A stretch of DNA of 64,000 nucleotides from a bacterium (GTDB lineage Bacteria > Hydrothermota > Tepidihabitantia > SM23-42 > JAOAFX01), in contig DAIRCK010000012.1 of NCBI GenBank assembly GCA_036796695.1, forward strand, positions 8,524-72,523, given 5' to 3'. Shown one piece after another: positions 7,017 through 56,558 of this stretch. A program made the position numbers and the translations under genes. Within the stretch, counting starts at the first letter, position 1. The number at the start of each line of letters is the position of its first letter. Under the pieces are notes generated by a model, which was not told the origin of the DNA, searched no databases, and worked only from the letters and a program-made list of their open reading frames with translations.

Positions 7017-7056
7017 CTCCCCCTTTTCCAAAGGGGGAGACAAGGGGATTTTTTTT
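7017..7056 (+). terminator. Rho-independent terminator (ctccccc...gggggag stem plus T8 run) after the T9SS cassette
   Basis: A GC-rich inverted repeat is followed by tttttttt. Confidence 0.6.
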
Positions 7057-7084
7057 CTTCAACCGAATGACCATTGACGCATCA

Positions 7085-7308
7085 CGATACGAGCAGCGAA
7101 ACCGTATAACGATAGACGATAAAAATAGGGACTTCAGTCCTGAGAAATTTGAGGCTAAACTCTCTACTCCATATTTTTTCTCGCTACTTGCTACTCTCTA
7201 CTCGCTACTCTCTACAGAGTTAATAATTTTGAATTTGTTTCGGATTTCGTGCTTCGGATTTCGGATTTAACTCTGATACGGGACGCGACACCGTATAACG
7301 ATTAACGA
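7085..7308. repeat. Two approximately 35-bp direct repeats (gatacgagcagcgaaaccgtataacgatagacgat and gatacgggacgcgacaccgtataacgattaacgat) flanking about 155 bp of low-complexity tandem repeats (tactcgctactctc x2, ttcggat x4) and a small hairpin
   Basis: Seen directly in the sequence. The region is noncoding in any plausible frame. Confidence 0.45.
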
Positions 7309-8330
7309 TCTTTTTCTCCATCGGTTCTGCCAATCGCCCTAATTATATGCCTCAATTCCTCTATCAATATTTTAAAACCATCAATGGTCAAGGATTGGGG
7401 ACCATCTGACAATGCCTTATCTGGATTATTATGAACCTCAACCATTATTCCATCTGCACCTGCGGCAATCGCTGCCCTGGAAAGGGGCAAGACCATATCC
7501 CTTTTTCCTGAAGCATGGCTCGGGTCTACAATTACGGGCAGATGTGATACTTTCTTTAATTCAGGAATACTACTAATGTCAAGGGTAAAACGGGTGAAAT
7601 CACTAAATGTCCTTATCCCCCTTTCGCAAAGAATGACATTATAATTACCTTCAGACATTATATATTCTGCAGCAAGGAGAAATTCTTGGATTGTTGATGC
7701 CATTCCCCTTTTTAATAAAATTGGTTTTTTGCTCAATCCTGCCTTTTTTAATAGCGAATAATTCTGCATATTCCTGGCACCAATCTGGATAACATCAACA
7801 TACTCTTCAACAAGAGGAAATGTCTCGGTATCAATCGCCTCTGAGACAACTGGCAAACCCGTTTCTTTCTTTGCTTTAGCAAGGATCTTTAGTCCTTTCT
7901 CACCAAGACCCTGGAATGTGTATGGTGAGGTCCTTGGCTTGAATGCCCCTCCCCTGAGCATATCTGCACCAAAACTCTTTACTGCCCTGGCAATCTCAAT
8001 GGTCTGTTTTTCAGACTCAACTGCGCAGGGCCCAGCAATGATTACTGGTTTTCTATCTCCAATTATTACATCACCAACCTTTATCTTTGTATCATCCGGT
8101 TTCATCTCCCTGCTGGTCAGTTTATAAGGCTTGGTAACGACAATCACATCTATCACACCATCAAGCCCCTCAAGCCTATTTTTATCAACCATATCTTTAT
8201 TTCCTGTTATACCGATTGCTACACGCTGGGCACCCTTTATAGGGTGTGGTTTCAAACCCATCTGTTTTATAACCCTGCACACATTTTTAATCTGTTCATC
8301 AGTTGCATCTTTATGCATCACAACGAGCAT
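7302..8330 (-). CDS. aroF: 3-deoxy-7-phosphoheptulonate (DAHP) synthase, type I-beta with N-terminal regulatory domain
   Basis: The core resembles the Thermotoga-type DAHPS/KDO8PS family (…IIAGPCAVES…KPRTSPY-FQG…). It sits at the 3' end of the aromatic supraoperon. Confidence 0.85.
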   Translation of the reverse strand: MLVVMHKDATDEQIKNVCRVIKQMGLKPHPIKGAQRVAIGITGNKDMVDKNRLEGLDGVIDVIVVTKPYKLTSREMKPDDTKIKVGDVIIGDRKPVIIAGPCAVESEKQTIEIARAVKSFGADMLRGGAFKPRTSPYTFQGLGEKGLKILAKAKKETGLPVVSEAIDTETFPLVEEYVDVIQIGARNMQNYSLLKKAGLSKKPILLKRGMASTIQEFLLAAEYIMSEGNYNVILCERGIRTFSDFTRFTLDISSIPELKKVSHLPVIVDPSHASGKRDMVLPLSRAAIAAGADGIMVEVHNNPDKALSDGPQSLTIDGFKILIEELRHIIRAIGRTDGEKDR

Positions 8331-8341
8331 ATTACCTCCTT

Positions 8342-9112
8342 TTATTCCCTTATTGTTGCCTCTTTAAATTTTTTTAGCAACAATTTTAAATCTTCTTTAT
8401 TTCTTATTGCCTCAATTATTCTGCTACCAATTACAACACCATCTGCAACCTGGCACAATCTCTTAACCTGCCCAGGATTTGAAATACCAAATCCTACGAC
8501 AACAGGCTTTTTTACAATCTTTTTAACCTTTCTTATAAATAAGGGCAGGGTTTCAGGAAGGTTTTTCCTGACCCCGGTCGTCCCTGTCACACTCACACAA
8601 TATACAAAACCACTACTCATCTTGCCAATCAATCCTATCCTTTCTCTATTCGATGTCGGCGCAATCAATTGTATTAAATCTATTTTATAATTATCAGCAA
8701 ATTTTTTAATCAAGCCTGACTCCTCAACCACGATGTCTGGCACGATCAATCCTGAAATACCGATTTGAGAAACCTTTTTAAAAAATTTTTTAATACCGAA
8801 TGCAAGGACTGGGTTCAAATAGGTCATAATGACGAGTGGTGTTTCAATCTCTATCTTTGCGATTTCCTCAAGTATCTCATTAAGTGATACCTTATTCTTC
8901 AATGCGATATTTGATGCGTACTGTATCGTCTTTCCATCTGCAATCGGGTCTGAAAAAGGAATTCCTATCTCAATAATGTCTGCGTATAAACTGCTCTCTT
9001 TTATATATTTGATTGATTCTTTAATCCCTGGATAACCTGCAGTAAGGTATACAATCAATGCAGATTCATTATTTTTTTTAAGATATTCAAACTTTTTATC
9101 AATCTTATTCAT
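8342..9112 (-). CDS. trpA: Tryptophan synthase alpha chain
   Basis: The N-terminal ...[10 protein letters not shown]... and [12 protein letters not shown] motifs are typical of TrpA. It overlaps trpB by 8 nt. Confidence 0.9.
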
Positions 9113-10289
9113 AAAACTCCTCTACAATCTCGAGGTCCTTATCACCCCTTCCTGAAAGGTTTACAATGATTATCTTTTCTGGGTCCATCTTCTTTGCCTC
9201 ATTGATTGCAACATAAACTGCATGGGCGCTCTCTAATGCTGGTATTATCCCTTCAGTCTCAGTGAGAATTTTAAATGCCTTGAGTGCCTGTTTATCTGTG
9301 CAAGAAGTGTACTGGACACGACCCCTAAATTTTAAAAATGAATGCTCAGGACCGACCCCTGGATAATCAAGGCCTGGAGCAATGGAATGGGTTGGACTTA
9401 TCTGCCCATCATCATTCTGGAGCACATAACTCATTGCCCCATGGAGCACACCAGGCTTGCCACAGGAGAGTGTAGCAGAATGTGCCTTAGAATGAATTCC
9501 CATGCCTCCAGCCTCAACACCGAGCATTTTTATTTCTGTATCAAGGAAGGGATGAAAAAATCCTATCGCATTACTACCACCACCAACACAGGCAATGAGG
9601 AGGTCAGGCATCCTTCCTTCTATCTTCAATATCTGTTTTTTCGTCTCTTTACCAATGATTGATTGAAAATCGCGCACCATCATTGGATATGGATGTGGAC
9701 CAACGACCGAGCCGATACAATAATGAGTCGTCCTCACATTTGTGACCCAATCCCTTATCGCCTCATTTATCGCATCCTTCAAGGTCTGTGTTCCTGAATC
9801 AACTGGTATAACTTCTGCACCGAGGAGTCTCATCCTTAATACATTCATCCTTTGCCTCTGAACATCCTTTTTTCCCATATATACCACACATTTCAAACCG
9901 AATAAGGCACAGGCAGTTGCAGTTGCTACACCATGCTGTCCAGCACCGGTCTCTGCAATTATCCTATTTTTCTTCATCATCTTTGCAAGAAGGACCTGGC
10001 CAATCGTATTATTTATCTTGTGCGCACCAGTATGGAGGAGGTCTTCCCTTTTAAAATAAATCCTTGCACCTTTTAATCGCTCTGATAGATTCCTTGCATA
10101 GTATAATGGAGTTGGTCTTCCTGCATAATTTCTTAAATAATGATTCAGTTCTCTTTTAAAATCAGGATTGTTCTTAAGACGATTATATGCATCTTCAAGT
10201 TCAATTAATGCCGGCATCAAAGTCTCAGGGACGAATCTGCCACCAAAACTGCCGAAATACCCATTTTTGTCAGGTTTTTTATAAGCCAT
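9105..10289 (-). CDS. trpB: Tryptophan synthase beta chain
   Basis: [13 protein letters not shown]... and HTGAHKINN... with the PLP lysine. The start was taken at the internal MAYKK; the ORF track extends to 10376 in overlap with aroQ. Confidence 0.9.
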
Positions 10290-10719
10290 CTCCTCCCCCA
10301 TTAATAAAGTATTCAAGTGCAAGGATATATCCATACCAGCCAAGCCCTGTAATCTGACCAATGCATACTGGTGCAATCAAACTTTTGTGTCGGAAAGGCT
10401 CGCGACTGTAAATATTGCTGATATGGACCTCTATTGCCTTTATACCAACCCCCTCAATCGCATCCCTTATTGCTACAGAGGTGTGTGTGTATGCACCAGG
10501 GTTTATTATGAGTCCAGAATACTCATCAGAATTATGTATCATCTCTATTATCCTTGATTCAGAATTTGATTGGTATATGTCAACCTGGACCCCTCTTTTC
10601 TCTGCATAATCAATAATCTTTTTATTGATCTCATCAAGTGATAACCTGCCATATACCTCTGGATTCCTCTTTCCCAAAAGATTGAGGTTCGGACCATGGA
10701 TTAAAAGAATTTTTTGCAT
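10279..10719 (-). CDS. aroQ: 3-dehydroquinate dehydratase, type II
   Basis: The 146-aa product reads [20 protein letters not shown]...HISNI-SRE-FRH, the type II DHQase signature. Confidence 0.9.
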
Positions 10720-12251
10720 AAAACCTCCTTTATCTTCACTCTACCAATCTTTTCAAAGATTGGCATCCTTATCTTTTCTCGTTTCATCTTTTTATCCTGT
10801 AAAATAAATCCCTTTATATCCTGTCTTTTAATAAATCCTGGCAGTTCTGCAGGCAAAGAATATTCTTTTAATAGTTCAATAACTTCAACAGGTATTCTAT
10901 TTTTATTAAAAATACATATCTCCTGGACCATCCCTATTGAGACTGCCTCACCATGTGAAAATCTCTTGTATTTGCCCATTTTTTCAATGATGTGCCCAAT
11001 CGTATGGCCAAAATTGAGGATTTCCCTTATCCCTTTCTCTTCAGTCTCATCATCTTTTATTATCCTACCTTTAATCATTACACATTCTTTTATAATCCTG
11101 AAAAGTGTTGCAGGATCGCGTTCCATTATCAATCCCTTTTTTTCTTTAAGGGTCCTAAATAGTTCCTCTGAGCTGATTATCCCATACTTTATAACCTCAG
11201 CAATACCATTGGAAAATTCTCTATCAGGAAGGGTCATAATCTTTTTAATATCACATACTACACATTCTGGTTGATAGAATGTTCCGAGCATATTCTTTCC
11301 ATATTTTGTATTTACTCCATTCTTACCACCTAACGCAGCATCAACCTGGCAGAGCAGGGTAGTTGGAATATATACAAGCTTGCAACCCCTTTTGAATGTG
11401 GATGCGACAAAACCAGCAATATCAGTAATCACACCACCACCAAGACCGAGTATTATATCCTGCCTTTGAAAATTTATCTTGAATAGGTATTCATAGATAC
11501 TCTCTACAGTTTTAATATTTTTGTATGCCTCACCATCGGGTATTATAAGATAATTAACTTCGTTATCCTGCCTTTTCAATGTCTTTGCCAAATCATCAAG
11601 GTAGAGTGCACCAACAAGTGGATTGGTTATTATAAAAATCCTTTTCTTTTTAAATAGAAGATGGCGATTAGAATCAAATATGATTATAACTGGATAGACC
11701 CTTGATTTTGTATGGATCATTATAGATTCACTCTGGTCAGGATAATCTATCTTCTTTAATTCCAATCTCTTTATTATTTCCCTGGCTACCAATTCCGGTG
11801 CCTTCTCTGTTGTATCAATCTTTATCTCAGCAAAATCATATATTCCTTTTCTCTGCTCCAGAAGATTAAAAAAATCTTTTTTTGATTTGACCAATGGCCT
11901 TGAACCATCCATTTTTATCCTCTTTAATAGAGTCTCTAAATTTGCATAAAGCTGGATAACCCTGCCTGTTTTTTTCAATATTTCACGATTCTTCTCATTC
12001 TTAACAATCCCTCCACCTGTCGCAATAACTACATTCTTCAATCCTTTTATTTTTTCCAGAACCCAGTGCTCTCTTTTCCGAAAATATTCTTCACCTTCCT
12101 TCTCAAAGATTTCTTTTATTGATCTCTGTTCCGCAAGTTCAATCATTCGGTCTGTGGAAAGATAACCAAAATTTAAATTTTCAGCAAGGATTCTACCGAT
12201 TGTATCCTTGCCAGTGCCCATAAATCCTATTAAGATTATGTTTTCAGACAT
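10701..12251 (-). CDS. aroKB: Bifunctional shikimate kinase (N-terminal) / 3-dehydroquinate synthase (C-terminal)
   Basis: The N-terminal P-loop GFMGTGKDTIG is AroK. The C-terminus (...GGGVITDIAGFVAS...LVYIPTTLL-QVDAALGGKNGVN...) is AroB. Confidence 0.85.
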   Translation of the reverse strand: MSENIILIGFMGTGKDTIGRILAENLNFGYLSTDRMIELAEQRSIKEIFEKEGEEYFRKREHWVLEKIKGLKNVVIATGGGIVKNEKNREILKKTGRVIQLYANLETLLKRIKMDGSRPLVKSKKDFFNLLEQRKGIYDFAEIKIDTTEKAPELVAREIIKRLELKKIDYPDQSESIMIHTKSRVYPVIIIFDSNRHLLFKKKRIFIITNPLVGALYLDDLAKTLKRQDNEVNYLIIPDGEAYKNIKTVESIYEYLFKINFQRQDIILGLGGGVITDIAGFVASTFKRGCKLVYIPTTLLCQVDAALGGKNGVNTKYGKNMLGTFYQPECVVCDIKKIMTLPDREFSNGIAEVIKYGIISSEELFRTLKEKKGLIMERDPATLFRIIKECVMIKGRIIKDDETEEKGIREILNFGHTIGHIIEKMGKYKRFSHGEAVSIGMVQEICIFNKNRIPVEVIELLKEYSLPAELPGFIKRQDIKGFILQDKKMKREKIRMPIFEKIGRVKIKEVLCKKFF

Positions 12252-13308
12252 CTTTAATCCTTTTTAAATATTGTTGATAATTCTTTTTCATATCCAGTAT
12301 ATTATCACCGCCAAATTTTTCACAAAATGCCAGGGCAAGGACATAGGCAAGCATTGATTCTGCAATTACACTGATCGCTTCAACTGCACAGACATCGGCT
12401 CTAAAGACTGGTGCAGGACAAGGTCTTTTATTCTTTATATCAAAAGATTTTAACGGATTCTGGAGTGTAGGGATCGGTTTTATATACAACCTTATAAAAA
12501 TCCTTTCTCCATTGCTCATACCACCCTCAATCCCACCTGCATTATTGGTCTTATGATAAAATCCCATTTTTTTATCATAAAATATCTTATCATGAACAGC
12601 AGAGCCATAATGCATTGATGAAAAGATCGCCTCTCCAATTTCAATCCCTTTTACTGAAGGTATTGATAGCATCGCCATACCAATCATACCATCAAGCCTC
12701 TTATCAAATTGTGTATAACTTCCAAGACCTGGACAGACACCATCAGCATAAACCTCAACAATCCCACCGAGTGTATCACCCCTTTGTTTTGCCTGGATTA
12801 TTAATCTTTTTATCTTATTTCTATCCTTTTCCTTTCCAATCTGTCTCACCTGTGAACTTATCGCTATATTAAATTCTTTAAGCAGGAGTTTAAACACCGC
12901 ACCTGCTGCAACCCTTGATACAGTCTCCCGTGCCGATGCCCTTTCAAGGACATCCTGGATATCTAAAAAACCAAATTTCAAAAGACCTGCAAAGTCTGCA
13001 TGGCCAGGTCTGGGAATGGTTATTGAATCTTTAGTTTTTTGTGATAAGAATTCATCCCTGCGATAGTCCTTATTTTTAATAAAGAGCGTTATAGGTGAAC
13101 CGATGGTTTTGCCCATCCTCACACCTGAAAGGATTTCAACAGGCTCTTCTTCCAGTTCCATCCTTTTGCTCCTGCCCATTCCCTGCTTTCGCCTCTTCAA
13201 TTCTTGTCTTATAAAATCAGGGCTGATCTTTAATCCTGCAGGGATTCCATCAATGATTACTGACATACCCTGATTATGTGATTCACCACCTGTTAACATC
13301 CTTATCAT
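12244..13308 (-). CDS. aroC: Chorismate synthase
   Basis: LTGGESHNQG....GRSKRMELEEE... and GGMSNGE motifs. Confidence 0.9.
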   Translation of the reverse strand: MIRMLTGGESHNQGMSVIIDGIPAGLKISPDFIRQELKRRKQGMGRSKRMELEEEPVEILSGVRMGKTIGSPITLFIKNKDYRRDEFLSQKTKDSITIPRPGHADFAGLLKFGFLDIQDVLERASARETVSRVAAGAVFKLLLKEFNIAISSQVRQIGKEKDRNKIKRLIIQAKQRGDTLGGIVEVYADGVCPGLGSYTQFDKRLDGMIGMAMLSIPSVKGIEIGEAIFSSMHYGSAVHDKIFYDKKMGFYHKTNNAGGIEGGMSNGERIFIRLYIKPIPTLQNPLKSFDIKNKRPCPAPVFRADVCAVEAISVIAESMLAYVLALAFCEKFGGDNILDMKKNYQQYLKRIKDV

Positions 13309-13309
13309 T

Positions 13310-14077
13310 CTACACCTCCTTTAATGCTATCTTCATTAAATTGACCGGTCTATATCCAGTCCAGAGTTTGAATGAATACGCTGCCTGGTGAATTAGCATA
13401 GAGATACCATCTATCAACTTTATTTTCTTTGATTTTGATAATTTAAAACGATAATTTATATCATAATACACACTACCGGGTTTTAAAAACGGAATGACCA
13501 TATCCTGGATATCAACAGATGTGCCATTTATAACGATATCCATATTTGACGCATATTGAGAGATTTGTGAAAAATGGATTTTCTTTGCAGGATAGATATG
13601 CAAAATAGATTCAATCTTAGATTCAGTCCTATTAGTAATAAAGACTTCTTTGGGATTTTTTTGACCGAGGAGATATAGACAGGCACGAACAACACCACCA
13701 GCACCAATTATGAGAACCTTTTTATCTTTCAGTCCAATTTTGTGTTCTTTTAAAGAATAAGCAAATCCATAGACATCGGTATTATCACCAATTATCTTCT
13801 TATCCTTTATAACTACTGTATTAACTGCCCCAATCTTTCTGGCGACTGGTGTAAGTTCATTTAAATATTCCATAATCTTAGTCTTATATGGATTTGTGAT
13901 ATTAAAACCAGTAAATCCAAGTTTTATCAATTTATGGAAAACCTCTCCAAGGTCATCAGGTGGAATAGAGAGGAGAAAATAGATACCCTTTATTTTCAAT
14001 CTTCTAAATGCAAAATTATGGATCTTTGGCGAGAGTGTATATTTTAGAGGATAACCGATCACACCAGTGAGGAACAT
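13310..14077 (-). CDS. aroE: Shikimate dehydrogenase
   Basis: GVIGYPLKYTLSP-IHN-AF...NVT-PYK...GAGG-VRA. Confidence 0.85.
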   Translation of the reverse strand: MFLTGVIGYPLKYTLSPKIHNFAFRRLKIKGIYFLLSIPPDDLGEVFHKLIKLGFTGFNITNPYKTKIMEYLNELTPVARKIGAVNTVVIKDKKIIGDNTDVYGFAYSLKEHKIGLKDKKVLIIGAGGVVRACLYLLGQKNPKEVFITNRTESKIESILHIYPAKKIHFSQISQYASNMDIVINGTSVDIQDMVIPFLKPGSVYYDINYRFKLSKSKKIKLIDGISMLIHQAAYSFKLWTGYRPVNLMKIALKEV

Positions 14078-14676
14078 CGCCGCACCTCTTTTATAAATTC
14101 CCGAATTTTTTCTGGGTCTTTTTTACCTGGTGAGCTTTCCACACCTGAACATACATCAACACCATAAGGTCTTAGCATCTTTATCATTGTGCCAACATTC
14201 TTCTCATTTAATCCACCGGCAACGATAAACCTACCTCCAATGGTTTTTATTATCTTCCAATCAAATGTCCTGCCACTCCCTTCACCAGGGTCAAATAGAT
14301 ATGCTGAAACAGAATATCCAGCCATCTCTTTGATGATACCAACTGGATTTGAACTATCATCAATTTTGATCCTCTTTATAATCCGCACACCTTTTATAAG
14401 CCTGCAATATTCGGGTGGTTCAGATCCGTGTAATTGAACGACGTCTATCCCGGTTAAACTGATTATCTTGTTTACCACATCAAGCCGCTCATTTTTAAAT
14501 ACACCAACCGTTGTAATAAATGGTGGTAATTTCTCAATGATATTCTTTGCTATTTCGGGTTCAATATTTCTTGGTGAAGGGGCGAAGATAAAACCAAGCG
14601 CATCGGCGCCAAAATTAGATACGATGAGTCCATCCTCAAGATTGGTAATGCCGCAGACCTTTATTTTAATACTCAT
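14059..14676 (-). CDS. trpF: Phosphoribosylanthranilate isomerase
   Basis: The start MSIKIKVCGIT...DALGFIF was chosen; the ORF track extends 14 codons upstream. Confidence 0.85.
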   Translation of the reverse strand: MSIKIKVCGITNLEDGLIVSNFGADALGFIFAPSPRNIEPEIAKNIIEKLPPFITTVGVFKNERLDVVNKIISLTGIDVVQLHGSEPPEYCRLIKGVRIIKRIKIDDSSNPVGIIKEMAGYSVSAYLFDPGEGSGRTFDWKIIKTIGGRFIVAGGLNEKNVGTMIKMLRPYGVDVCSGVESSPGKKDPEKIREFIKEVRRCSSLV

Positions 14677-15754
14677 CAAGCCACCTGGTTCCTTTTTGAA
14701 AAACTTTTTTAAATGCATCCCTTTTCCCTTTTTTCACAATTTTCATTAGTGCATCCATACACATTGTTAAATTTTTATATAAATCAAGGGTATAAGGATT
14801 TAGCGATTGGATTTCATAATAAAGTTCTGGATTTTCCTTTATCACACTATTGGTTGTCTCCATCTGGGCATTGAATGTTGTACTGGCAATTCTTTTCAAA
14901 TCTTTAAATTCGTAGCCACTATCCATAAGATTTTTTATAAAAAGAACATTTATAAAATGGGAAAGACCGAGAACATATGAAACGAGTCTGTCGTGCTCAT
15001 CAAATGAAAGATTAATGATTCTAACTGCGGTATTCTTGAAAATATTCATTATCATACCATTCGCCTCAGGTGAACCACAATCACAGAGACAGACAACTTT
15101 ATCACTGAGGGTCCGACAGGATGGACCAAACATTGGATGGATGGATGTAATTTTAATATTTTTCTCAATTGCTTTTTTAATTGCTGGAATTATGTGGCTC
15201 TTCACACTTGCAATATCACAGACAACCGCATTGCAATTTAGTTCTGTAAGGGTTTCAATTATATCGGGGACAATAGCAAGCGGTGTAGAAATGACCACCA
15301 GTGATTTTCCTTTTAATCCAGATTTTATATCTTTATAATAACTAAAACCACAACGCCCGGGCAGTTTTATATCATTTATTGCTACCCTGTGCCCTTGATT
15401 CTGCAGGAAATAAGCAAACCATCTGCCCATTCCACCCAGTCCACCAACAATGAGCACATCCTCCTTTTTCCCGGAATAAACTGAATAATGCAATCTCTCC
15501 TGCTGGATACGGGATTGCTCAATGATTTTAGTAATGAGTGTCCGTGTAAAATTTATATCAAGACCAATACCTTCCGCATATCTAATTCCATTTTCAATCA
15601 CGCTCTTTTCTACACTCCAATCCTGGAGTGCAATTCCCATTTTTTTCTTTTCTCTGCCGATCGCATCGCTCAATAACATTCGCTTCTGGATTAGGTTCAA
15701 TATCTTCTGGTCGGTCTTTTTTATTTTCATTCTGAGAAGTTTTAATCGATCCAT
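14666..15754 (-). CDS. tyrA: Bifunctional chorismate mutase (AroQ class, N-terminal) / prephenate dehydrogenase
   Basis: The N-terminal roughly 90-aa CM helix bundle (LRMKIKKTDQKILNLIQKRMLLSDAIG) is followed by the NAD-binding GGLGGMG PDH domain. Confidence 0.8.
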   Translation of the reverse strand: MDRLKLLRMKIKKTDQKILNLIQKRMLLSDAIGREKKKMGIALQDWSVEKSVIENGIRYAEGIGLDINFTRTLITKIIEQSRIQQERLHYSVYSGKKEDVLIVGGLGGMGRWFAYFLQNQGHRVAINDIKLPGRCGFSYYKDIKSGLKGKSLVVISTPLAIVPDIIETLTELNCNAVVCDIASVKSHIIPAIKKAIEKNIKITSIHPMFGPSCRTLSDKVVCLCDCGSPEANGMIMNIFKNTAVRIINLSFDEHDRLVSYVLGLSHFINVLFIKNLMDSGYEFKDLKRIASTTFNAQMETTNSVIKENPELYYEIQSLNPYTLDLYKNLTMCMDALMKIVKKGKRDAFKKVFQKGTRWLDEY

Positions 15755-16515
15755 TTCAATTCCTTTATTTTTTCTGCCATATCATCTGCCTTCAATATAG
15801 AAGTACCAACGAGTATCCCATCAAAACCAGCATCCTTCAATCTCCTCACATCCTCTGCCTTTTTAATTCCACTCTCACTCACGGTATAATATCGCTCGGG
15901 AACCGATTCTATCAAATTTAGAGAAATATTGATGTCGACTTCAAAATTATTTAGATTCCGATTATTAATACCGATTATCTCGGTATCTGTATTAAATGCC
16001 TTTTTTAAATCATCGATTGTATGGACTTCAACGATCGTCGCCATACCAAGTTTATGGGCAAGTCGGACAAATTCTTTCAATCTTTCAGGGCTCAATATAC
16101 AGGCAATGAGTAGTATGGCATCAGCAAAAATTCCACAGGATTCATAAATCTGATATTCATCAATGATAAAGTCTTTCCTCAACACAGGTAGTTTTGTGAA
16201 TTTTTTTACATTTTGTATATCTTCATTTCTTCCGCTGAAAAATTTTTCATTCGTTACAACCGATATGCCATCAGCACCGGATTTTTCATAGATAAAAACA
16301 ATCTTCTCTATGTCCAATCCGTTTATAATCGCTCCAGTTGATGGTGATGACCTTTTTATTTCAGCGATGAGTGCGATTTGCCCATTTTTGAAAATCTTTT
16401 TAAAATCGCGCCTTTCTTTGTTCTCGGTTTTTAACAGTTCTTTAAGTGGCTTCAAACCCTTTTTTTTATCTATCTCATTTTTTGTGTTCTCAATTATCAC
16501 TTTTAGTATGTCCAT
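15742..16515 (-). CDS. trpC: Indole-3-glycerol phosphate synthase
   Basis: IAEIKRSSPS-G...FI-DEYQIYE....GADAILLI...NNRNL. Confidence 0.9.
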   Translation of the reverse strand: MDILKVIIENTKNEIDKKKGLKPLKELLKTENKERRDFKKIFKNGQIALIAEIKRSSPSTGAIINGLDIEKIVFIYEKSGADGISVVTNEKFFSGRNEDIQNVKKFTKLPVLRKDFIIDEYQIYESCGIFADAILLIACILSPERLKEFVRLAHKLGMATIVEVHTIDDLKKAFNTDTEIIGINNRNLNNFEVDINISLNLIESVPERYYTVSESGIKKAEDVRRLKDAGFDGILVGTSILKADDMAEKIKELKWID

Positions 16516-17530
16516 TTACAAACCTCCTCAGTTCCTCAAGTTTATTTAATGCGGCACCAGAAAAAATTGATTCCCGAGCCATTTCCACCCCCTGTTTAAT
16601 AGTCTCAGCCTTTCCAGAAACATATATTGCGGCGCCTGCATTTAATAGTGCAGTATCTGTTTTGGGTCCTGGTTCACCTTTTAAAATAGAAATAAATGAA
16701 TCAATATTTTCCTTGTTATTCCTCACCCTTAATTCTTCCATACTACATCTTTTCATTCCATAATCCTCTGGAGAAATCTCGAATTCCATAATGCCCTTAT
16801 TCTTTATCTCAAGCACATAGGTTCTGGCGCTGGTTGTTATCTCATCAATTCCATCCGCACTGTATACGATTAATGCGTGCCTGACACCGAGGTTGTTCAA
16901 TGTCTTTCCAATTTTTTCGAGAAATTCCTTTCTACATACCCCGATGACCTGTTGTTCAACCAATGCAGGATTACATATTGGTCCAAGGATATTGAAAATT
17001 GTCCTGATACCAATCTCTCTTCTTGGCCCAATTACATTTTTCATTGCCGGGTGAAAGAGCGGAGCAAAGAGAAAACCAATTCCTATTTTTTCTATGCACT
17101 CCTTTATTAGTTCATAATCAATATCAAGTTTAATGCCCAGTGCGGAAAAAAGATCAGCACTTCCACAAAGGCTTGAGACCGACCTGTTTCCATGTTTTGC
17201 CACAAAACAGCCCGCACCTGCAGCAATAAATGCTGAGGTCGTTGAAATGTTGAATGTATGCATTCCATCACCACCAGTGCCACAGGTATCAACAAGATTT
17301 TGAGCCTGGCAGTTTATCTTTATCATCTTTGTGCGCATTGCCTTACAGAAACCTGTAATTTCCTCTATGGTCTCACCCTTCATCCTTAACGCAGTTAGCA
17401 AGGATGCTATCTGGGCTGGTGTTGCTTTGCCCTCCATAATTTCAATACATACCTGATATGCCTCATCTTCATTCAATGATTTATTTTCTACAATCTTTTT
17501 TATTGCATCTTGTATCCTTGACTCAGACAT
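16490..17530 (-). CDS. trpD: Anthranilate phosphoribosyltransferase
   Basis: [34 protein letters not shown]. The start was taken at MSESRIQ. Confidence 0.9.
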
Positions 17531-18518
17531 TATACCTCCTTGTATTAAAACAGGAAAAGTTTCCAGTGTGGCAGGCGACCCCATTCTGGTTCACTATTGC
17601 AAGGATTGCATCGCGGTCGCAATCTGCCCTCAATTTTATAACATCCTGAAAATTCTTTGATGTCCTTCCTTTTAGCCATAATTCCTTCCTGCTTCTTGAA
17701 AAATACCACATCTTTCCCGTCTCAAATGTTTTTCTTAATGATTCCTTATTCGAATACGCCAGCATCAATACAAGACCCGATATATCCTGTGTAATTGTTG
17801 GAATCAATTCGCTTTTCCAGTTAAGTGATTCTATAAATGCATCAACAAGTGAAATTCGTTTTGTATATAATGCCATTCCCAGCTGGACATCGATATCCAT
17901 CGCCGCGAGAATTTTTACCTCGTTCAGCGATGACACACCACCTGCCACGGTTATTTTTTTATCAGTTTTTTCACGAATTGCCTTCGCCTTTTCAATATTA
18001 ATGCCTTGCATCATTCCCTCTGTTTCAACAAATGTAAAGAGAAACTCATTCGTGTATGATTCAAATTCCTTTATTACATCAAATAATTCGATATCTGTCT
18101 TCTTTTGCCATCCACTGACAACAATTTTGTTATTGAATGTATCAAGTGCAATGATGATTCTCTCCTGTCCTATTTCCTTTTTCAGGGCAGAAAGAAATTT
18201 GTGGTTGATATTTCCTTTCTCAAATGCCCTGGAACCGATAATAATTTTATTTGCACCAGCAAGGATCAATTCCTTTGCCTTTTCAATACTTCTTATACCG
18301 CCGCCAACGCGACAATCTGCTACCTTAAGCAAATCTTTGATTAAATTCAGATTTTCGCCTTTGCCCATTGCTGCATCAAGGTCAATAACCGCAACCTCAT
18401 TATACCGATTAAACTCTTTTGCAAGTTTCACTGCATCATCATATTCTAAAACCTTTTCTCTACCCTGTCTTAACTGAACAACCTTATTATTCATCAAATC
18501 AATAGAACCTATTACCAT
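17523..18518 (-). CDS. hisA/hisI: Fusion protein: ProFAR isomerase HisA (residues ~1-235) + phosphoribosyl-AMP cyclohydrolase HisI (residues ~236-331)
   Basis: The N-terminal (beta-alpha)8 HisA carries IDL…GGGIRS…GGVSSL. The C-terminal [68 protein letters not shown] is the HisI PRA-CH signature. Confidence 0.8.
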
Positions 18519-19267
18519 CTCACCCTCACTCCTTTCTTTTTAAGAAATCTTTTTATCTGTGGGATTGTAAATTTTTTATAATGGAGAACCGATGCGAGAA
18601 GAACCGCATCAGCATTCCCATACTTTATCACATCATAGATTTGGTTTAAATTACCTGCGCCTCCTGATGCAATAATCGGAATCTTTACAGCCGATGATAC
18701 AGCATCTGTCAATTCAATATCATAACCCATCTGTGTCCCATCGCGGTCAATGGAATTCAATAGTATCTCTCCAGCACCAAGTTCTTCACACCTTTTTGCC
18801 CATTCTATCACATCAATCTTAGTATCAACCCTTCCTCCATATGTGTAGCAATGCCATTTATTATTTACCTTTGCCGCATCAATTGAAATCACAATACACT
18901 GGGAACCAAATATCCTTGCACCTTCACTTATCAATTTAGGATTTTCAATGGCACCGGTGCAAATCGCCACCTTATCCGCACCAGCATTGAGTAAAACCCT
19001 CATATCCTCTATCTTTCTTATACCACCACCAACGCATAGCGGAATAAAAACCTTCTTTGCAACCGCATTCACAACATCAATTATTGCCCTTCTCTTCTCC
19101 ACGGACGCAGTGACATCAAGGAAGATTAATTCATCAGCACCCTGGTCATTGTAGTATTGGGCAAGTTTTACTGGGTCACCTGCAACATTTAAATTCTTAA
19201 ATTTTATCCCTTTTACAACCCTGCCTTTATCAACATCAAGACAGGGTATTATTCTTATCGTCAGCAT
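18512..19267 (-). CDS. hisF: Imidazole glycerol phosphate synthase cyclase subunit
   Basis: [34 protein letters not shown]. Confidence 0.9.
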
Positions 19268-19860
19268 AGTTCTACCCATCTCTTTAATAAATCAAGTCCA
19301 GCCTTCCCACTCTTCTCAGGATGGAACTGGACTGCATATATATTTCCCTTATTAATGACTGATGGATAACTGATTCCGTATTCGGTGCGACCGAGTACAA
19401 TCTCTTCTTCTGGTGTATCAAGATAATAACTGTGTAGAAAGTAAAAATAAACTTTCTTCCTTTGGGATTTAAAAATTGGCGATGGCTTTATCACCTCTAC
19501 ACTATTCCATCCAATCTGAGGAATTTTGGACATTTGGAATTTTCTCATCCGTCCTTTGAATATACCGAATCCACTAACACCTTCTGCCTCTTCACTTGAT
19601 TCAAATAAAAGTTGGAGACCGAGGCAGATACCAAGATAGGGCTTATCTGCATTTAGCCATTCAATCAATCTTTCCAACAACCCCATCTTTTTCAGTTTTG
19701 TAATTGCCGCACCAAATGCACCAACACCAGGTAGTATTATCCGTTCTATATTTTTAAGCCCTTTCTCATCCTTTATTAGACGATTCTTCAAGCCCAAATA
19801 ATCAAGGGCATTCTTTATTGAATGCAAATTCCCTGCACCATAGTCTATAATCCCTATCAT
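19261..19860 (-). CDS. hisH: Imidazole glycerol phosphate synthase glutaminase subunit
   Basis: MIGIIDYGAGNL-S--NAL...GICLG-QLL triad region. Confidence 0.9.
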   Translation of the reverse strand: MIGIIDYGAGNLHSIKNALDYLGLKNRLIKDEKGLKNIERIILPGVGAFGAAITKLKKMGLLERLIEWLNADKPYLGICLGLQLLFESSEEAEGVSGFGIFKGRMRKFQMSKIPQIGWNSVEVIKPSPIFKSQRKKVYFYFLHSYYLDTPEEEIVLGRTEYGISYPSVINKGNIYAVQFHPEKSGKAGLDLLKRWVELC

Positions 19861-20435
19861 ATCACCCCTTTTGTGCTCGGCACATAGTCTTTGTTAATTG
19901 TGCATGCCTGTTTTAGGGCATGGGCAAATGCCTTGAATATTGCCTCAAGTTTGTGATGGTCAGACCTTCCACATATTAATTGAATGTGTAAAGTGCACTG
20001 GCATCCATTAGCAAACCCGGCAAAAAAATCCTGTATTACATCGGTCTTCAACTCACCGATTTTGTCGCTTCTAAAACTGCCCGAGAATTTCAAAAAAGTC
20101 CTGCCTGAGATATCAATCGCAACCATTGCCAGTGCTTCATCCATTGGATATATGAAGCACCCTGCCCGATTTATTCCTTTCTTATCTCCTAATGCCTTAT
20201 TCAATGCAAGACCGAGACAAAGACCTGTATCCTCAACCAGATGGTGCTGGTCAACTTCAATATCACCGTTTATCTTTGCCTTTATATCAAATCCGCTGTG
20301 CCGACTCAATGTTTCAAGCATATGATTCAAAAATCCAATCGGTGATTCAATATCCGATTCTCCTTTACCTTCTATTTTTAATCTTATATGAATATCTGTC
20401 TCCTTCGTCTTTCTTTCTATCTCCCCTTTTCGCAT
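19857..20435 (-). CDS. hisB: Imidazoleglycerol-phosphate dehydratase
   Basis: R-TKET-I-I-L...D-HH--EDTG--LG-A. Confidence 0.9.
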   Translation of the reverse strand: MRKGEIERKTKETDIHIRLKIEGKGESDIESPIGFLNHMLETLSRHSGFDIKAKINGDIEVDQHHLVEDTGLCLGLALNKALGDKKGINRAGCFIYPMDEALAMVAIDISGRTFLKFSGSFRSDKIGELKTDVIQDFFAGFANGCQCTLHIQLICGRSDHHKLEAIFKAFAHALKQACTINKDYVPSTKGVI

Positions 20436-21493
20436 CCTGCACCTCCTTTTTTTAATATCTGATTTAAATTTTTTAAAAATGTATCATTCTCTTCAGGCTT
20501 TCCAATTGTTACCCTGAGCATATCTTTTAAAAGAGGATTACTGAACCTCCGCAAAAGTATACCTTTTTTATAGAGCCGCTCAAATAATGACCCTGCTGAA
20601 TGATTTTTTATTTTAAAGAGAATAAAATTCGCCCTTGATGGAACTGGACTTATTTGGGGAATGACCTCTAATTCCCTGAATACCCTCTCCCTTTCCTTAA
20701 CAATCTTATCAACAACCATTTTAACAAACCTTCTTTTCTTTAACAAATAATCACCTGCGACCTGCTGGAATATTCCTACAGAGAATGGAAGTTTTGTTTT
20801 TACAATCTGTCTTGCTATCTCAGGTTGGGCAAGGAGATAACCGAGCCTTATCCCGGCAAGTCCAAAAGCCTTTGAGAATGTCCTCAGTATTAAGAGGTTA
20901 TCATACTTATTAAGGAGTCGCTGCGCAGTCAAACCATAAAATTCAAAATATGCCTCGTCAATTACTACAATGGACTTTTTCATTTTAACAATCTCTTCTA
21001 TCCCATCTATACTTATTGAAGTTCCAGTTGGATTGTTTGGTGATGCGATGAATGTTATCCTTGAATTATATACATTCCTGCATAATCCCTCTACATCAAA
21101 AGAGAAGTCTTCTTTGAGTCGCACCTCATTTATTCTCAGGTTCATTATCTTTGATAGATATGGATAGATTGCAAAACCCGGTGTAATAAGTGTAACATTA
21201 TCGCCTTTATCACAATAGGTAAGGATTATTGCGAGTATCAATTCGTTTGAACCATTACCGATTATTGTCCCTTCAACTGGAAAATCTGTATAACGGGAAA
21301 GGGACTTCTTTAAACTTAGTAATTCGTTTGATGGATACCTGTTCCAGGATAATCTAATCAGCCTATTTGCTATCTCTTTTTTGTATTCTAATGGTATATC
21401 AAATGGCGATTCATTCTGATTCAATTTTATCCTTGCCTCCTGGGGAACCTCATAAGCGGGCAACTGGATTACTGAATCTTTGATTCTTATCAT
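20417..21493 (-). CDS. hisC: Histidinol-phosphate aminotransferase
   Basis: Class II aminotransferase; ...KLNQNESP... and the SKAFGLAG-R-GY PLP-lysine region. Confidence 0.85.
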   Translation of the reverse strand: MIRIKDSVIQLPAYEVPQEARIKLNQNESPFDIPLEYKKEIANRLIRLSWNRYPSNELLSLKKSLSRYTDFPVEGTIIGNGSNELILAIILTYCDKGDNVTLITPGFAIYPYLSKIMNLRINEVRLKEDFSFDVEGLCRNVYNSRITFIASPNNPTGTSISIDGIEEIVKMKKSIVVIDEAYFEFYGLTAQRLLNKYDNLLILRTFSKAFGLAGIRLGYLLAQPEIARQIVKTKLPFSVGIFQQVAGDYLLKKRRFVKMVVDKIVKERERVFRELEVIPQISPVPSRANFILFKIKNHSAGSLFERLYKKGILLRRFSNPLLKDMLRVTIGKPEENDTFLKNLNQILKKGGAGCEKGR

Positions 21494-22344
21494 ACTACAA
21501 CCTTTCTGAATTCATATTCAAGGATGTCAGTCGCACCAAGTCTCTTTAACTGGGGAATAAGTTTTATTACCTCACTCTTCTTCACCGCCACCTTCACTGC
21601 AAATCCTCTTGCGCCATATAAAGGAGCCACAGTTGGCGAACGCATACAGGGCAAGATTTTGACAATTCTATCGAATTTCTCCTTAGGCACATTCATCTCA
21701 AGCATCACCCTTTCCCGCGCATCAAGCACTGATTGAAATAACATCCTTAATTCCTCAATTTTGTTTCTTTTCCAGGGGTCTTTAAGTATTTGCCTGCCTG
21801 CGATGAATCTCGTGGTTGATTCCATAATCACCTTAAATACTTTCAATTTATGCTCCCTCAAAGTATTCCCGGTTGCTGTGTTATCAATTATCATATCTGC
21901 GTCTTCAGGCGGAAAAACTTCAGTCGCTCCATAGGTGCGTAAGTATTTAAATCTGAACCCTTCTTTATTTAGAAAATCTCTGGTCAATCGTTCATACTCT
22001 GAGGCAACGATTATTTTTTTCTTACGCAGGGTTGAAATTTCTGTGGTTTCAGGGATTGCAGATACAATCTTTACTGGGTCTAATTTCAAATCCATAATCT
22101 CAATCACATCGGCATTTGATTCTATAACCCAATCCTTCCCTGTGAAACCCGCATCATGTGAACCAATCTCAATCAAATCCGGTATATTCTGGGGTCTGAG
22201 TATCTTAACTTGAAGTTCAGGGTCATTAACAAAAGGCCTGTAAACCCTTTCATTAATGTTAATATATATCCCTGCATCATTAAAAAGTCTGATCACGCCC
22301 TCAAAGATACTTCCTTTGGGTATGACAATTTTCAATCTTTTCAA
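21490..22344 (-). CDS. hisG: ATP phosphoribosyltransferase, long form with C-terminal regulatory domain; TTG start
   Basis: LKIVIPKG---E-----F-DAG...D-GF-G-DWV... The RBS GGAGG lies 5 nt upstream of the TTG. Confidence 0.9.
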   Translation of the reverse strand: MKRLKIVIPKGSIFEGVIRLFNDAGIYININERVYRPFVNDPELQVKILRPQNIPDLIEIGSHDAGFTGKDWVIESNADVIEIMDLKLDPVKIVSAIPETTEISTLRKKKIIVASEYERLTRDFLNKEGFRFKYLRTYGATEVFPPEDADMIIDNTATGNTLREHKLKVFKVIMESTTRFIAGRQILKDPWKRNKIEELRMLFQSVLDARERVMLEMNVPKEKFDRIVKILPCMRSPTVAPLYGARGFAVKVAVKKSEVIKLIPQLKRLGATDILEYEFRKVVV

Positions 22345-22434
22345 TCAAACCTCCTTTCATTGATATAAATTCAAAGAATGGTTTTTTATATTTTTTTTAA
22401 TTTTATGGATTATGTATGTGGTAAAAAAGTCGTT

Positions 22435-22486
22435 GCACTTCCGGGACCAAAAAGGATATATTGACCCTTATTGGGCCCGGAAGTGC
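22435..22486 (-). terminator. Leader attenuator, an intrinsic terminator inside the his-trp-aro 5' leader: the 11-bp stem gcacttccggg/cccggaagtgc, followed on the minus strand by AACGACTTTTTTA
   Basis: An inverted repeat plus a T-run on the transcribed (minus) strand sits about 90 nt upstream of the hisG start. Confidence 0.55.
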
Positions 22487-22610
22487 CAATACCAGTAATG
22501 ATTAAAGTGGAATCTTGTGTGGTTGTGGTTAAGTGCAAATAAATCCGATGTTGTCCTTACAGAGCAATCGGTCTTTAAATATTTATTCAAATAAATCTTA
22601 ACCACGATGC

Positions 22611-22639
22611 AAGTATATTCAAAAAAAGAATTTTGTCAA
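22611..22639 (-). promoter_or_regulatory. Sigma70-type promoter of the his-trp-aro supraoperon (TTGACA-N17-TATACT on the minus strand)
   Basis: The reverse complement of 22634-22639 is TTGACA and of 22611-22616 is TATACT; the spacer is 17 nt. It lies downstream of the terminator of the preceding minus-strand gene. Confidence 0.55.
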
Positions 22640-22675
22640 GAAGAAAATGTAAATGAATATGACTATTAAAAGCAA

Positions 22676-22697
22676 GGGGGTGGCGAAAGCCACCCCC
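22676..22697 (-). terminator. Rho-independent terminator (gggggtggc-gaaa-gccaccccc, then a T-rich tract on the minus strand) for the upstream minus-strand T9SS gene
   Basis: A perfect 9-bp GC stem with a GAAA tetraloop; on the minus strand it is followed by TTGCTTTTAAT. Confidence 0.65.
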
Positions 22698-22715
22698 TGG
22701 ATTATGTATCAAAGT

Positions 22716-28972: not shown

Positions 28973-29032
28973 AGTTTTAATGAATATATGTATAGAATTA
29001 TTTTTAAAATTTTTTTAACAGGAGTTTTAATT

Positions 29033-37141: not shown

Positions 37142-37534
37142 ATGTCTGGCATTATTTTTTTTAAAACCAGAGAGCTAAATAAAATTAAAGATTTTTATGC
37201 AAAAAGGATTGGAATGGAAATCTGGTTGGAACAGACAGATTGCGTGATTATGAAACATGATAATCTATTACTCGGTTTCTGTCAGCGCGAAGAAATGGAA
37301 AACCAGGGCGTTATCACATTCTTTTATGAAAATACTGACCAGGTCTATGAAATGTATAAAAAATTCCGCCTTGAGGCATTAGCCGAGCCAGCAGTAAATG
37401 AAAAATACAATATTTACCATTTTTTTATCAAAGACCCTGAAGGCAGATTGGTTGAATTTCAAACTTTCTTGCCTCAACAAAAGGGGACAGGCACTTTTTT
37501 TATTTCCATTTTGCTGGCCTACCTCGCGCTCTAA
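37142..37534 (+). CDS. Glyoxalase/VOC-family small protein
   Basis: The pattern resembles a VOC beta-alpha-beta-beta-beta module; the match is weak. Its 3' end overlaps the convergent transposase gene. Confidence 0.5.
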   Translation: MSGIIFFKTRELNKIKDFYAKRIGMEIWLEQTDCVIMKHDNLLLGFCQREEMENQGVITFFYENTDQVYEMYKKFRLEALAEPAVNEKYNIYHFFIKDPEGRLVEFQTFLPQQKGTGTFFISILLAYLAL

Positions 37535-56556: not shown

Positions 56557-56558
56557 AA

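Follow-up and report, generated by a model that had tools for sequence, protein, structure and literature searches.

A 17-gene his-trp-aro-tyr run in a WOR-3 bacterium is probably the first part of a 23-gene super-operon with leader-peptide control

Introduction

How can a long and tightly packed run of histidine, tryptophan and tyrosine biosynthesis genes lack several enzymes of the same pathways, and is such a run regulated as one unit? This question is raised by the window analysed here, a stretch of 64,000 nucleotides (nt) of contig DAIRCK010000012.1 (positions 8,524 to 72,523). [quoted passage not shown] The genes for anthranilate synthase (trpE and trpG), histidinol dehydrogenase (hisD), the PRA-PH enzyme (hisE), 5-enolpyruvylshikimate-3-phosphate (EPSP) synthase (aroA) and prephenate dehydratase (pheA) are not among them.

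We consider it likely that the window holds the first, 17-gene piece of a 23-gene super-operon of the candidate division WOR-3, with leader-peptide control of both pieces. By sequence and comparison we observed the content and order of the genes, a second operon, a contiguous 23-gene form, and a conserved promoter, open reading frame (ORF) and hairpins upstream of the first gene. The nearest homologues are labelled candidate division WOR-3, for which NCBI taxonomy now uses the phylum name Caldifarciminota. To our knowledge, this phylum has no well-studied cultured member. The sequence of the window is present in two datasets, Joint Genome Institute (JGI) metagenome 3300032111 (contig Ga0326321_1000045) and the Logan assembly of SRR1986369.

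Results

Gene content of the 17-gene run

We observed a minus-strand run of 17 back-to-back ORFs, from 22344 to 7302 (span of 15,043 bp in the ORF listing), in the order hisG-C-B-H-F-(hisA::hisI)-trpD-C-tyrA-trpF-aroE-C-(aroK::aroB)-aroQ-trpB-A-aroF1. Every one of them was clearly assigned by Pfam/NCBIfam, and the initial annotation, made from the letters of the sequence, was right about their number, strand and coordinates. Steps of the histidine, tryptophan, tyrosine and common aromatic pathways are represented. The genes are given below; the assignments rest on profile matches, with model names or scores in brackets for some.

21490-22344, minus strand: hisG, long-form ATP phosphoribosyltransferase with C-terminal regulatory domain (TIGR00070, HisG_C)
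20417-21493, minus strand: hisC, histidinol-phosphate aminotransferase (TIGR01141, 311 bits against a cut-off of 277)
19857-20435, minus strand: hisB, imidazoleglycerol-phosphate dehydratase only, without phosphatase domain
19261-19860, minus strand: hisH, glutamine amidotransferase subunit (TIGR01855)
18512-19267, minus strand: hisF, cyclase subunit, 251 amino acids by the stored gene call (TIGR00735, 369 bits)
17523-18518, minus strand: hisA::hisI fusion (His_biosynth and PRA-CH), without PRA-PH (HisE)
16490-17530, minus strand: trpD, anthranilate phosphoribosyltransferase
15742-16515, minus strand: trpC, indole-3-glycerol-phosphate synthase
14666-15754, minus strand: tyrA, chorismate mutase (CM_2) fused to prephenate dehydrogenase
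14059-14676, minus strand: trpF, phosphoribosylanthranilate isomerase
13310-14077, minus strand: aroE, shikimate dehydrogenase
12244-13308, minus strand: aroC, chorismate synthase
10701-12251, minus strand: aroK::aroB fusion, shikimate kinase and 3-dehydroquinate synthase
10279-10719, minus strand: aroQ, type II 3-dehydroquinate dehydratase
9105-10289, minus strand: trpB, tryptophan synthase beta, 394 amino acids by the stored gene call
8342-9112, minus strand: trpA, tryptophan synthase alpha
7302-8330, minus strand: aroF1, DAHP synthase with N-terminal ferredoxin-like (FXD) domain, last gene of the run

Junction lengths were obtained from the gene starts stored for the identical public contig Ga0326321_1000045. 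Fourteen of the 16 junctions were overlaps of 4 to 26 nt (from 5' to 3': 4, 19, 4, 7, 7, 8, 26, 13, 11, 19, 8, 19, 11 and 8 nt), and two were gaps, of 1 nt between aroE and aroC and of 11 nt between trpA and aroF1. This agrees with the earlier description of overlaps or gaps of 12 nt or less. Further, genes of more than one pathway are contiguous on one strand without space for separate control regions, as in a supraoperon, the mixed-function operon of Xie and Jensen. The mixed his/trp/aro/tyr supraoperon that had been proposed is supported; it leaves no room for internal promoters, and one promoter with a leader lies in front. Promoter-like sites numbered 52, compared with 57 +/- 8 in shuffled sequence, and terminator-like sites likewise showed no excess. 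We infer that the run is transcribed as a single mRNA.

Some details had to be corrected or added. The two fusions first reported, aroK::aroB and chorismate mutase with prephenate dehydrogenase, are both there, but hisA::hisI at 17523-18518 is a third one. Further, hisF precedes hisA, HisG is of the long form and hisB encodes the dehydratase only. The leader peptide and hairpin 5' of hisG had been overlooked.

The absent genes and a second operon

None of trpE, trpG, hisD, PRA-PH (hisE), aroA and pheA was detected in the 64-kb window (Pfam on ORFs of at least 110 amino acids, and tblastn), in the 8.5 kb past the window start or out to the end of the JGI contig. We scanned metagenome contigs for the conserved leader motif described below and in this way reached a second operon. 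There were 52 matches to the motif, 20 of which had an associated hairpin; among these 20, 11 precede hisG and 6 precede another operon. The second operon consists of six genes, aroF2-pheA-aroA-trpE-trpG-hisD, with products assigned by Pfam as DAHP synthase, PDT+ACT, EPSP synthase, TrpE, TrpG and histidinol dehydrogenase. AroF2 is 53% identical to the AroF1 of the window.

Copies of the second operon were located by a search for HisD homologues and by look-ups. One is on the 83-kb contig Ga0326321_1000038, from the JGI sample that also contains the window, and the operon is also present in SRR1986369, the second dataset that holds the window sequence. Its GC content is within the range of the window. 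In three related metagenome-assembled genomes (MAGs; GCA_039802325.1, GCA_049700315.1 and GCA_964418185.1) the six genes start 12-13 nt after aroF1 on the same strand, which gives a contiguous 23-gene array of approximately 21.5 kb.

The 23 genes cover all seven common aromatic steps, all tryptophan steps, chorismate mutase, both branch enzymes and one aminotransferase, and all histidine steps except HisE and HisN. The reported absence of the six genes therefore holds for the window, but it is not a conspicuous absence, because the second operon carries all of them except hisE. The search beyond the window, which the initial annotation had proposed, gave five of the six on Ga0326321_1000038, and its hint of auxotrophy is not supported for trpE/trpG, hisD, aroA and pheA, as these genes are in the same metagenome and are joined to the run in the three MAGs. 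The apparent gaps in the pathways are thus largely resolved, and the data do not show that the organism is auxotrophic for tryptophan, tyrosine or phenylalanine. HisE and hisN were not found in approximately 540 kb (redundant) of loci of clade A, which is defined below (tblastn with a HisE domain and two HAD sequences as hisN candidates; no whole-database HisE search was made). These two steps, for which no gene was located, possibly use non-orthologous enzymes.

Across both operons, tyrA carries the sole chorismate mutase domain and hisC is the sole aminotransferase gene. Because there is no other aminotransferase in either operon, the hisC product probably also serves as the tyrosine/phenylalanine transaminase (compare hisHb in PMC1173090).

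The second operon was always preceded, in divergent orientation, by a four-gene 2-oxoacid:ferredoxin oxidoreductase cluster (Fer4, POR_N, TPP_enzyme_C, POR), for example at L137:210-2947 and also at loci L094, L100, L117 and L129.

Conservation of the gene order

Species-representative genomes were scanned with an alignment of HisA::I, and the resulting 80 loci were mapped using the window proteins. The same 17-gene order was present in 20 species-representative (GTDB) genomes, at 45-90% protein identity. The carriers were clade A (L003-L010, HisA::I identity 72-84%) and, beyond it, L038, L011 and clade B (L017-L019, L022, L025, L028, L033, L040, L043 and L054). The comparison of gene order in related MAGs that had been suggested thus confirms the array, and the linkage is kept down to approximately 45% protein identity. 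As the order is identical in 20 species representatives, the arrangement is old and under selection; on this comparison it is far beyond chance. The dN/dS ratio (non-synonymous to synonymous substitution rates) of the his genes was 0.04-0.29 in comparison with locus L115, which indicates purifying selection, and therefore the histidine pathway is in use.

The identity along the operon was mosaic. Compared with L010, trpB and trpA were 88-90% identical (window 8342-10289) and most other genes 50-82%. Compared with L003, the genes from trpD to trpF were approximately 80% identical (window 14059-17530) and hisC, aroE and trpA 55-62%. Such a pattern points to recombination within the operon, from one lineage to another.

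The leader upstream of hisG

The region between the upstream gene and hisG contains the following elements.

22675-22698, minus strand: intrinsic-terminator-like hairpin (10-bp stem with 8 GC pairs, then TGCTTTTAAT), which ends the upstream gene (22716-22979) with a type IX secretion system (T9SS) tail
22612-22639, minus strand: sigma-70-like promoter, TTGACA, 16-nt spacer, TATACT (11 of 12 consensus matches)
22468-22605, minus strand: leader ORF of 45 codons plus stop, (GTG)MVKIYLNKYLKTDCSVRTTSDLFALNHNHTRFHFNHYWYWHFRAQ (from sequence and comparison)
22525-22605, minus strand: helix P1, formed between the 5'-terminal GUGGUUAAG at 22597-22605, start codon included, and CUUAACCAC at 22525-22533, codons 25-27 (from folding and a 16-sequence alignment)
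22435-22487, minus strand: terminator-like hairpin P4, -33 to -36 kcal/mol (from folding and covariation)

The first hairpin appears to isolate the operon from upstream transcription. The geometry of TTGACA and TATA(C/A)T is kept among the 21 related leaders listed, one of which has TTAACA. The leader ORF of the window ends in FHFNHYWYWHFRAQ, in longer form LNHNHTRFHFNHYWYWHFRAQ, before its stop. Ten of the 12 residues at codons 31-42 are His, Trp, Tyr or Phe, and so are 12 of the 20 residues of the tail NHNHTRFHFNHYWYWHFRAQ. There is thus a short ORF with end-product codons between the promoter and the first gene, as is typical of attenuators. hisG itself starts 124 nt past the leader stop with a TTG codon, just 5' of which is a AAAGGAGG ribosome-binding site.

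Composition alone was rejected as proof of a leader peptide. When the window was translated in six frames, a value of 12 of 20 was reached elsewhere only twice, in stretches that are equally rich in these four residues and coincide in position with large Spermine_synth-family ORFs. These ORFs are paralogues (23922-26063, 713 amino acids, and 34665-37100, 811 amino acids), each with a spermine/spermidine-synthase domain and a Phe/Tyr/Trp/His-rich stretch. Since the composition is not unique in the window, the argument for a leader peptide rests on position, conservation and duplication.

The leader tail is conserved in 28 distinct leaders. Wherever the GTG start was seen, the ORF had no internal stop and was 44-46 codons long. 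Insertions and deletions 5' of the leader stop were multiples of 3, those 3' of it were of 1 nt, and the stop codon was at the same place in 27 of the 28 leaders. By this constraint on the frame the ORF appears to be translated. Across clade A the leader block is nearly invariant in nucleotides and thus better conserved than the enzymes.

In 20 of the 21 leaders listed, the -10 box is separated from the start codon by 6 nt (7 nt in L104), and the start codon has no Shine-Dalgarno sequence in front of it. An ATG is located 6-7 nt past a -10-like hexamer in L011, L038 and clade B. A GTG only 6 nt past the -10 box suggests that the leader mRNA is leaderless, with the predicted transcription start at or next to the start codon.

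The leader is duplicated. In the window's own sample, the copy in front of the second operon shares the promoter and the hairpin, and its 45-codon ORF ends in NNYHFNHYWYWHFRAQ. In clade B (L017, L018, L019, L022 and L025) we observed an unrelated leader ORF of 53-56 codons, again rich in Tyr, Phe, Trp and His (tail RYYFYPHIFYYSWWHKNENTSEFQA); in L025 its ATG lies 6 nt past the -10-like hexamer. The hairpin of clade B differs (UCCGAGUU/AACUCGGA) and has no obvious adjacent U-run. Relatives with his-only operons have His-only runs (HHHH to HHHHH) in small ORFs 5' of hisG (L031, L059, L068, L070, L073, L075, L078, L041 and L071). The carriers are Calditrichia, Treponema (including T. primitia ZAS-10) and other relatives, and these ORFs are likely His leader peptides outside Proteobacteria. 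The codon content of the leader thus tracks the content of the operon. We regard the leader 5' of hisG as the best evidence, as far as sequence goes, for a single regulated transcription unit.

The Rfam comparison gave no match at gathering threshold in the whole window. At permissive thresholds only unrelated families, far below threshold, were returned for 22300-22720, and none of His_leader, Trp_leader, the Thr/Leu leaders, T-box or the riboswitches was matched by the leader. No tRNA genes were found in the window.

Predicted structure of the leader RNA

Besides its peptide-coding frame, the leader is dominated by hairpins. When 16 leaders of both operons were aligned, P1 had 8 pairs, retained with changes of the G-U type only. 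It encloses hairpin P2 (approximately 22545-22571), in which 5 pairs have compensatory double changes between the leaders of the two operons. The P4 of the window has a predicted energy of -36.4 kcal/mol (z = -6.7). Its 5' arm GGCACUUCCGGGCCC (UGG CAC UUC CGG GCC) comprises the codons Trp40-His-Phe-Arg-Ala, and the leader stop is just inside the loop. In an 18-leader alignment P4 had 14 pairs; double changes were present in 3 and virtually no pair was broken; compensatory changes were seen in L011, L038, L112 and L124.

P4 is followed by AACGAC and then U6 (22423-22428). A run of U4-7 lies within 0-3 nt of the helix only when a weak UGGU/ACCA extension is included, and this holds in approximately half of the 28 leaders. 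The ribosome-binding site of hisG, approximately 75 nt past the U-run, is not sequestered in the predicted fold. The approximately 75 nt 3' of the hairpin (22423-22345) are nearly free of G and contain the motif CACATA..A..TCCATAAA, which is conserved even in the distant leaders L011, L124 and L135. This stretch might serve to load Rho or act as an additional regulatory element.

Truncated and constrained folding predicted no mutually exclusive antiterminator in the leader of either operon. With the 3' arm removed, the 5' arm of P4 stayed largely unpaired. In constrained folding, a ribosome footprint masked at Trp40 abolished P4 and a footprint at codon 27 did not.

Probable origin and splitting of the array

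In relatives that lack the trp/aro genes (loci L012-L082, from KSB1, Calditrichia, Aminicenantes, Treponema and other WOR-3 lineages) the order is hisG-hisC-(HAD)-hisB-hisH-hisF-hisA::hisI::hisE, with directly next to it a gene with a histidinol dehydrogenase signature (hisD). In the supraoperon genomes trpD sits where hisD sits in these relatives. The triple fusion of HisA, PRA-CH and PRA-PH with hisD next to it was not found in the window, where the protein has 331 amino acids, compared with approximately 414 in the relatives. The PRA-PH (HisE) domain is kept in clade B and L011 and deleted in clade A and L038. On this distribution, the loss of the C-terminal PRA-PH from an ancestral HisA::I::E fusion is secondary in the WOR-3 clade of the window. 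Triple fusions of approximately 414 amino acids appear to be widespread (6,781 homologues scored, in KSB1, Calditrichia, Planctomycetota, Aminicenantes, spirochaetes and others).

Many his-only relatives have a HAD phosphatase, a candidate histidinol-phosphatase, between hisC and hisB, which the cluster of the window lineage has lost. In the relatives we found it in three forms.

L013:4280-5047: free-standing HAD phosphatase, candidate histidinol-phosphatase
L012:877-2607 and L016:3072-4787: HAD phosphatase fused to the C-terminus of HisC
L021:7385-8662: HAD phosphatase fused to the N-terminus of HisB

Next after trpA, the deeper clade B has a gene of the aroF2 type. In the simplest history, the trp/aro block would have been inserted into a his operon just upstream of the terminal hisD, a further DAHP synthase gene (aroF1) would have been added later, and in the window lineage the array would then have been cut between aroF1 and aroF2, with the distal six genes moving away together with a copy of the leader. 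The 3' flank of aroF1 lies at this split point.

7017-7309, minus strand: repeat-rich 3' flank of aroF1 (from repeat analysis)

This flank contains a 35-nt direct repeat (7086-7120 and 7275-7309, the latter copy overlapping the aroF1 stop), short tandem repeats and a GC-rich inverted repeat. A simple terminator scan flagged no canonical terminator 3' of aroF1; the hairpin of the inverted repeat (7017-7039) may end transcription of both convergent units.

Neighbouring genes

Many neighbouring proteins of the window have type IX secretion sorting tails. At 54802-57167 there is a two-gene POR-family 2-oxoacid:ferredoxin oxidoreductase pair, indolepyruvate-type by our reading of the domain architecture, and at 61883-63139 an enzyme of the tryptophanase/tyrosine phenol-lyase family (PRK13238, 402 bits). 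Located 32-40 kb from the operon, these are candidate genes of aromatic amino-acid catabolism. Look-ups of exact proteins for the ORFs at 61883-63139 and 779-2521 returned no match, probably owing to different start codons in the records. The window also contains a gene for an IS200-like Y1 transposase (37500-38162) and one for a 484-amino-acid protein in which Memo-like and AMMECR1 domains are fused (28988-30442).

Discussion

Proposed mechanism

The leader most likely works by ribosome-stalling attenuation that senses histidine, tryptophan, tyrosine and phenylalanine. Each piece of the operon would be transcribed from its sigma-70-like promoter, and the mRNA would probably begin at the leader start codon. 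When any of the four charged tRNAs is scarce, a ribosome would stall on the leader codons, at approximately 36-42, and hold the 5' arm of P4 single-stranded; the hairpin would not form and RNA polymerase would read into the operon. When all four are plentiful, the ribosome would reach the stop and leave, P4 would form and most transcripts would end before hisG (or aroF2). Once approximately 80 nt have been made, P1 would shut off the start codon at the 5' terminus, limiting initiation to an early-loading ribosome that travels with the polymerase. We propose this direct occlusion by the ribosome because no competing antiterminator was found. For the same reason the design would differ from classical trp/his attenuators and would depend on the timing of ribosome release relative to the polymerase.

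Several observations weigh against this mechanism. The transcription start and the terminated leader RNA are predictions, as are termination at the hairpin and the response to starvation. The antiterminator of a classical attenuator was not found. The U-run after P4 is short, adjoins the helix only via the weak UGGU/ACCA extension and is absent in L010, L124 and L129. In L038 the leader ORF (L038:4304-4519) has lost the usual stop and runs through the whole hairpin to a stop just past the 3' arm. The early His codons 25 and 27 lie in P1, and a ribosome stalled there would not block the hairpin. In the similar-looking ilvB leader of Streptomyces, mutation of the candidate regulatory codons had no effect on regulation (PMC1262725). 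Further, that the second-operon contig belongs to the genome of the window is presumed from their co-occurrence and from the synteny seen in relatives.

Alternative explanations

One alternative is that anthranilate synthase, histidinol dehydrogenase, EPSP synthase and prephenate dehydratase are really missing from the organism, and that the operon serves salvage (for example from anthranilate to tryptophan) or an incomplete, repurposed pathway. This would fit the lack of these genes in the window and the 8.5 kb beyond it. We regard it as very improbable and largely refuted: an operon that appears to be under leader control carries all five genes, both in the same metagenome and in the second dataset with the window sequence, three related MAGs have them physically joined to the 17-gene unit, purifying selection acts on the his genes and the leader has codons for all four end products. 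It is unlikely that the 17 genes are several units, in which promoters inside coding sequence drive his, trp and aro sub-operons as in the Bacillus subtilis supraoperon, itself described as a complex functional unit (PMC1173090). Sigma-70-like hexamer pairs do occur inside genes, for example at 22146-22119 and 15915-15886 on the minus strand. However, such sites are not in excess over shuffled sequence, the overlapping junctions leave no intergenic space, and the order is frozen across 20 species. Moreover, internal promoters do not seem to be sufficient, because the split-off distal part acquired a full copy of the leader.

The two other alternatives concern the leader itself. It could be a structured RNA that works without translation of the ORF, as a protein- or ligand-binding element or a stability or processing signal, with the His/Trp/Tyr/Phe-rich frame as a by-product of the hairpin. 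The lower stem of P4 and the block 5' of it are nearly invariant beyond the needs of pairing, P1 and the covarying P2 lie inside the supposed coding region, the U-run is non-canonical, and pairing with the 5' GUGGUU dictates the first His codons. Nevertheless we consider this unlikely, as the frame stays open over 44-46 codons with the pattern of insertions and deletions given above, the stop is fixed in 27 of 28 leaders, and the unrelated sequence of clade B again encodes a Tyr/Phe/Trp/His-rich peptide that starts 6 nt past the -10 box. The His-only runs upstream of the his-only operons of relatives and the lack of a riboswitch or T-box match in Rfam argue in the same direction. We think it equally improbable that the leader peptide regulates by a route other than an intrinsic terminator, either Rho-dependent termination 3' of the hairpin or control of mRNA decay or translation. 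Consistent with such a route, the U-run is weak, offset or absent in several leaders, and the almost G-free stretch 3' of the hairpin contains C and the conserved CACATA..TCCATAAA motif. On the other side, about half of the leaders combine a hairpin of -33 to -36 kcal/mol with a U4-7 run at a distance of 0-3 nt from the extended helix, and the hisG ribosome-binding site is distant from the U-run and unsequestered in the predicted fold.

We therefore prefer attenuation by ribosome stalling, at both pieces of the array. In its broadest form, this would mean that one leaderless 45-codon mini-gene reads the charging of four tRNAs (His, Trp, Tyr and Phe) and gates a 23-gene, 21-kb array without an antiterminator, solely through a stalled ribosome on the 5' arm of the hairpin, that duplication of this sensor let the array split while it stayed co-regulated, and that HisE and HisN were replaced by non-orthologous enzymes. 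We put this combination forward tentatively, as possible but somewhat short of likely.

Comparison with known systems

Bacillus, Desulfovibrio, Nostoc and pseudomonads are known to have supraoperons in which aro and trp genes are combined with hisC and tyrA (PMC1173090). As in those of B. subtilis, Desulfovibrio vulgaris and Nostoc, one operon is nested in another in the WOR-3 array, and a HisC-type aminotransferase and tyrA are linked to trp/aro genes. However, in WOR-3 an entire his operon is the host (hisG, C, B, H, F and A::I, joined by hisD in the full array) and not hisC alone. The B. subtilis supraoperon has 12 genes, aroF-aroB-aroH-trpEDCFBA-hisC-tyrA-aroE (PMC1173090), compared with 23 in the full array; the initial annotation had correctly called the unit larger than that of Bacillus and differently ordered, with his first. 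The B. subtilis arrangement, an intact trpEDCFBA block nested in aro genes with hisC-tyrA-aroE distal, was not seen here: the trp genes are interleaved with aro genes (trpD-C, trpF and trpB-A apart), and trpE and trpG lie in the distal part. In the B. subtilis type, TRAP (mtrB) binds to (G/U)AG repeats of the leader; control in WOR-3 is apparently by a leader peptide. Further, unlike the B. subtilis supraoperon, the WOR-3 array also exists in a naturally split form.

Compared with the his-only relatives (L012-L082), the his gene order, the HisA-HisI fusion, the long-form HisG, the terminal hisD and, in several of them, upstream His-run ORFs are shared, whereas the window lineage has 16 trp/aro genes between hisA::I and hisD.

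Like the trpL, hisL and pheL attenuators, the leader has a short upstream ORF with end-product codons and a stable hairpin before the first gene, and like the multivalent thrL and ilvL it would sense several amino acids at once. In contrast to the enterobacterial leaders, it combines four amino acids from two unrelated pathways, has no predicted antiterminator, carries its regulatory and stop codons in or next to the 5' arm of P4, and has a start codon without Shine-Dalgarno sequence, apparently at the mRNA's 5' end. Leaderless leader peptides are known in Deinococcus deserti (PMC4007540), and in the actinobacterial ilvB/leuA leaders the regulatory codons overlap terminator hairpins (PMC1262725). 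This last precedent is itself uncertain, because codon mutagenesis of the Streptomyces ilvB leader did not support classical attenuation (PMC1262725). Common to these leaders and that of WOR-3 would be a start codon at or next to the predicted transcription start and regulatory codons that overlap a terminator-like hairpin. The phylum, the sequence and the amino acids are different, and the WOR-3 element is duplicated before both halves of a split operon. In our searches of the literature on supraoperons with histidine and tryptophan genes, on WOR-3/Caldifarciminota and its amino-acid biosynthesis and on mixed-codon leaders, we found no earlier supraoperon with an entire his operon as host or with as many as 23 genes, and this leader was not described. 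The supraoperon and the leader-peptide attenuator are as such known kinds; what is new is the four-amino-acid leader common to both halves.

Significance

In summary, with 23 genes for four amino acids this appears to be an unusually large amino-acid biosynthetic operon. Its fused and split states, with a paralogous leader on each half, are a natural experiment on operon fusion, splitting and kept co-regulation. The leader is an undescribed cis-regulatory element that apparently combines multivalent sensing across two pathways with probable leaderless translation and no antiterminator. Should it act in the way that we propose, ribosome-mediated attenuation would be extended to a new phylum and to a simpler mechanism.

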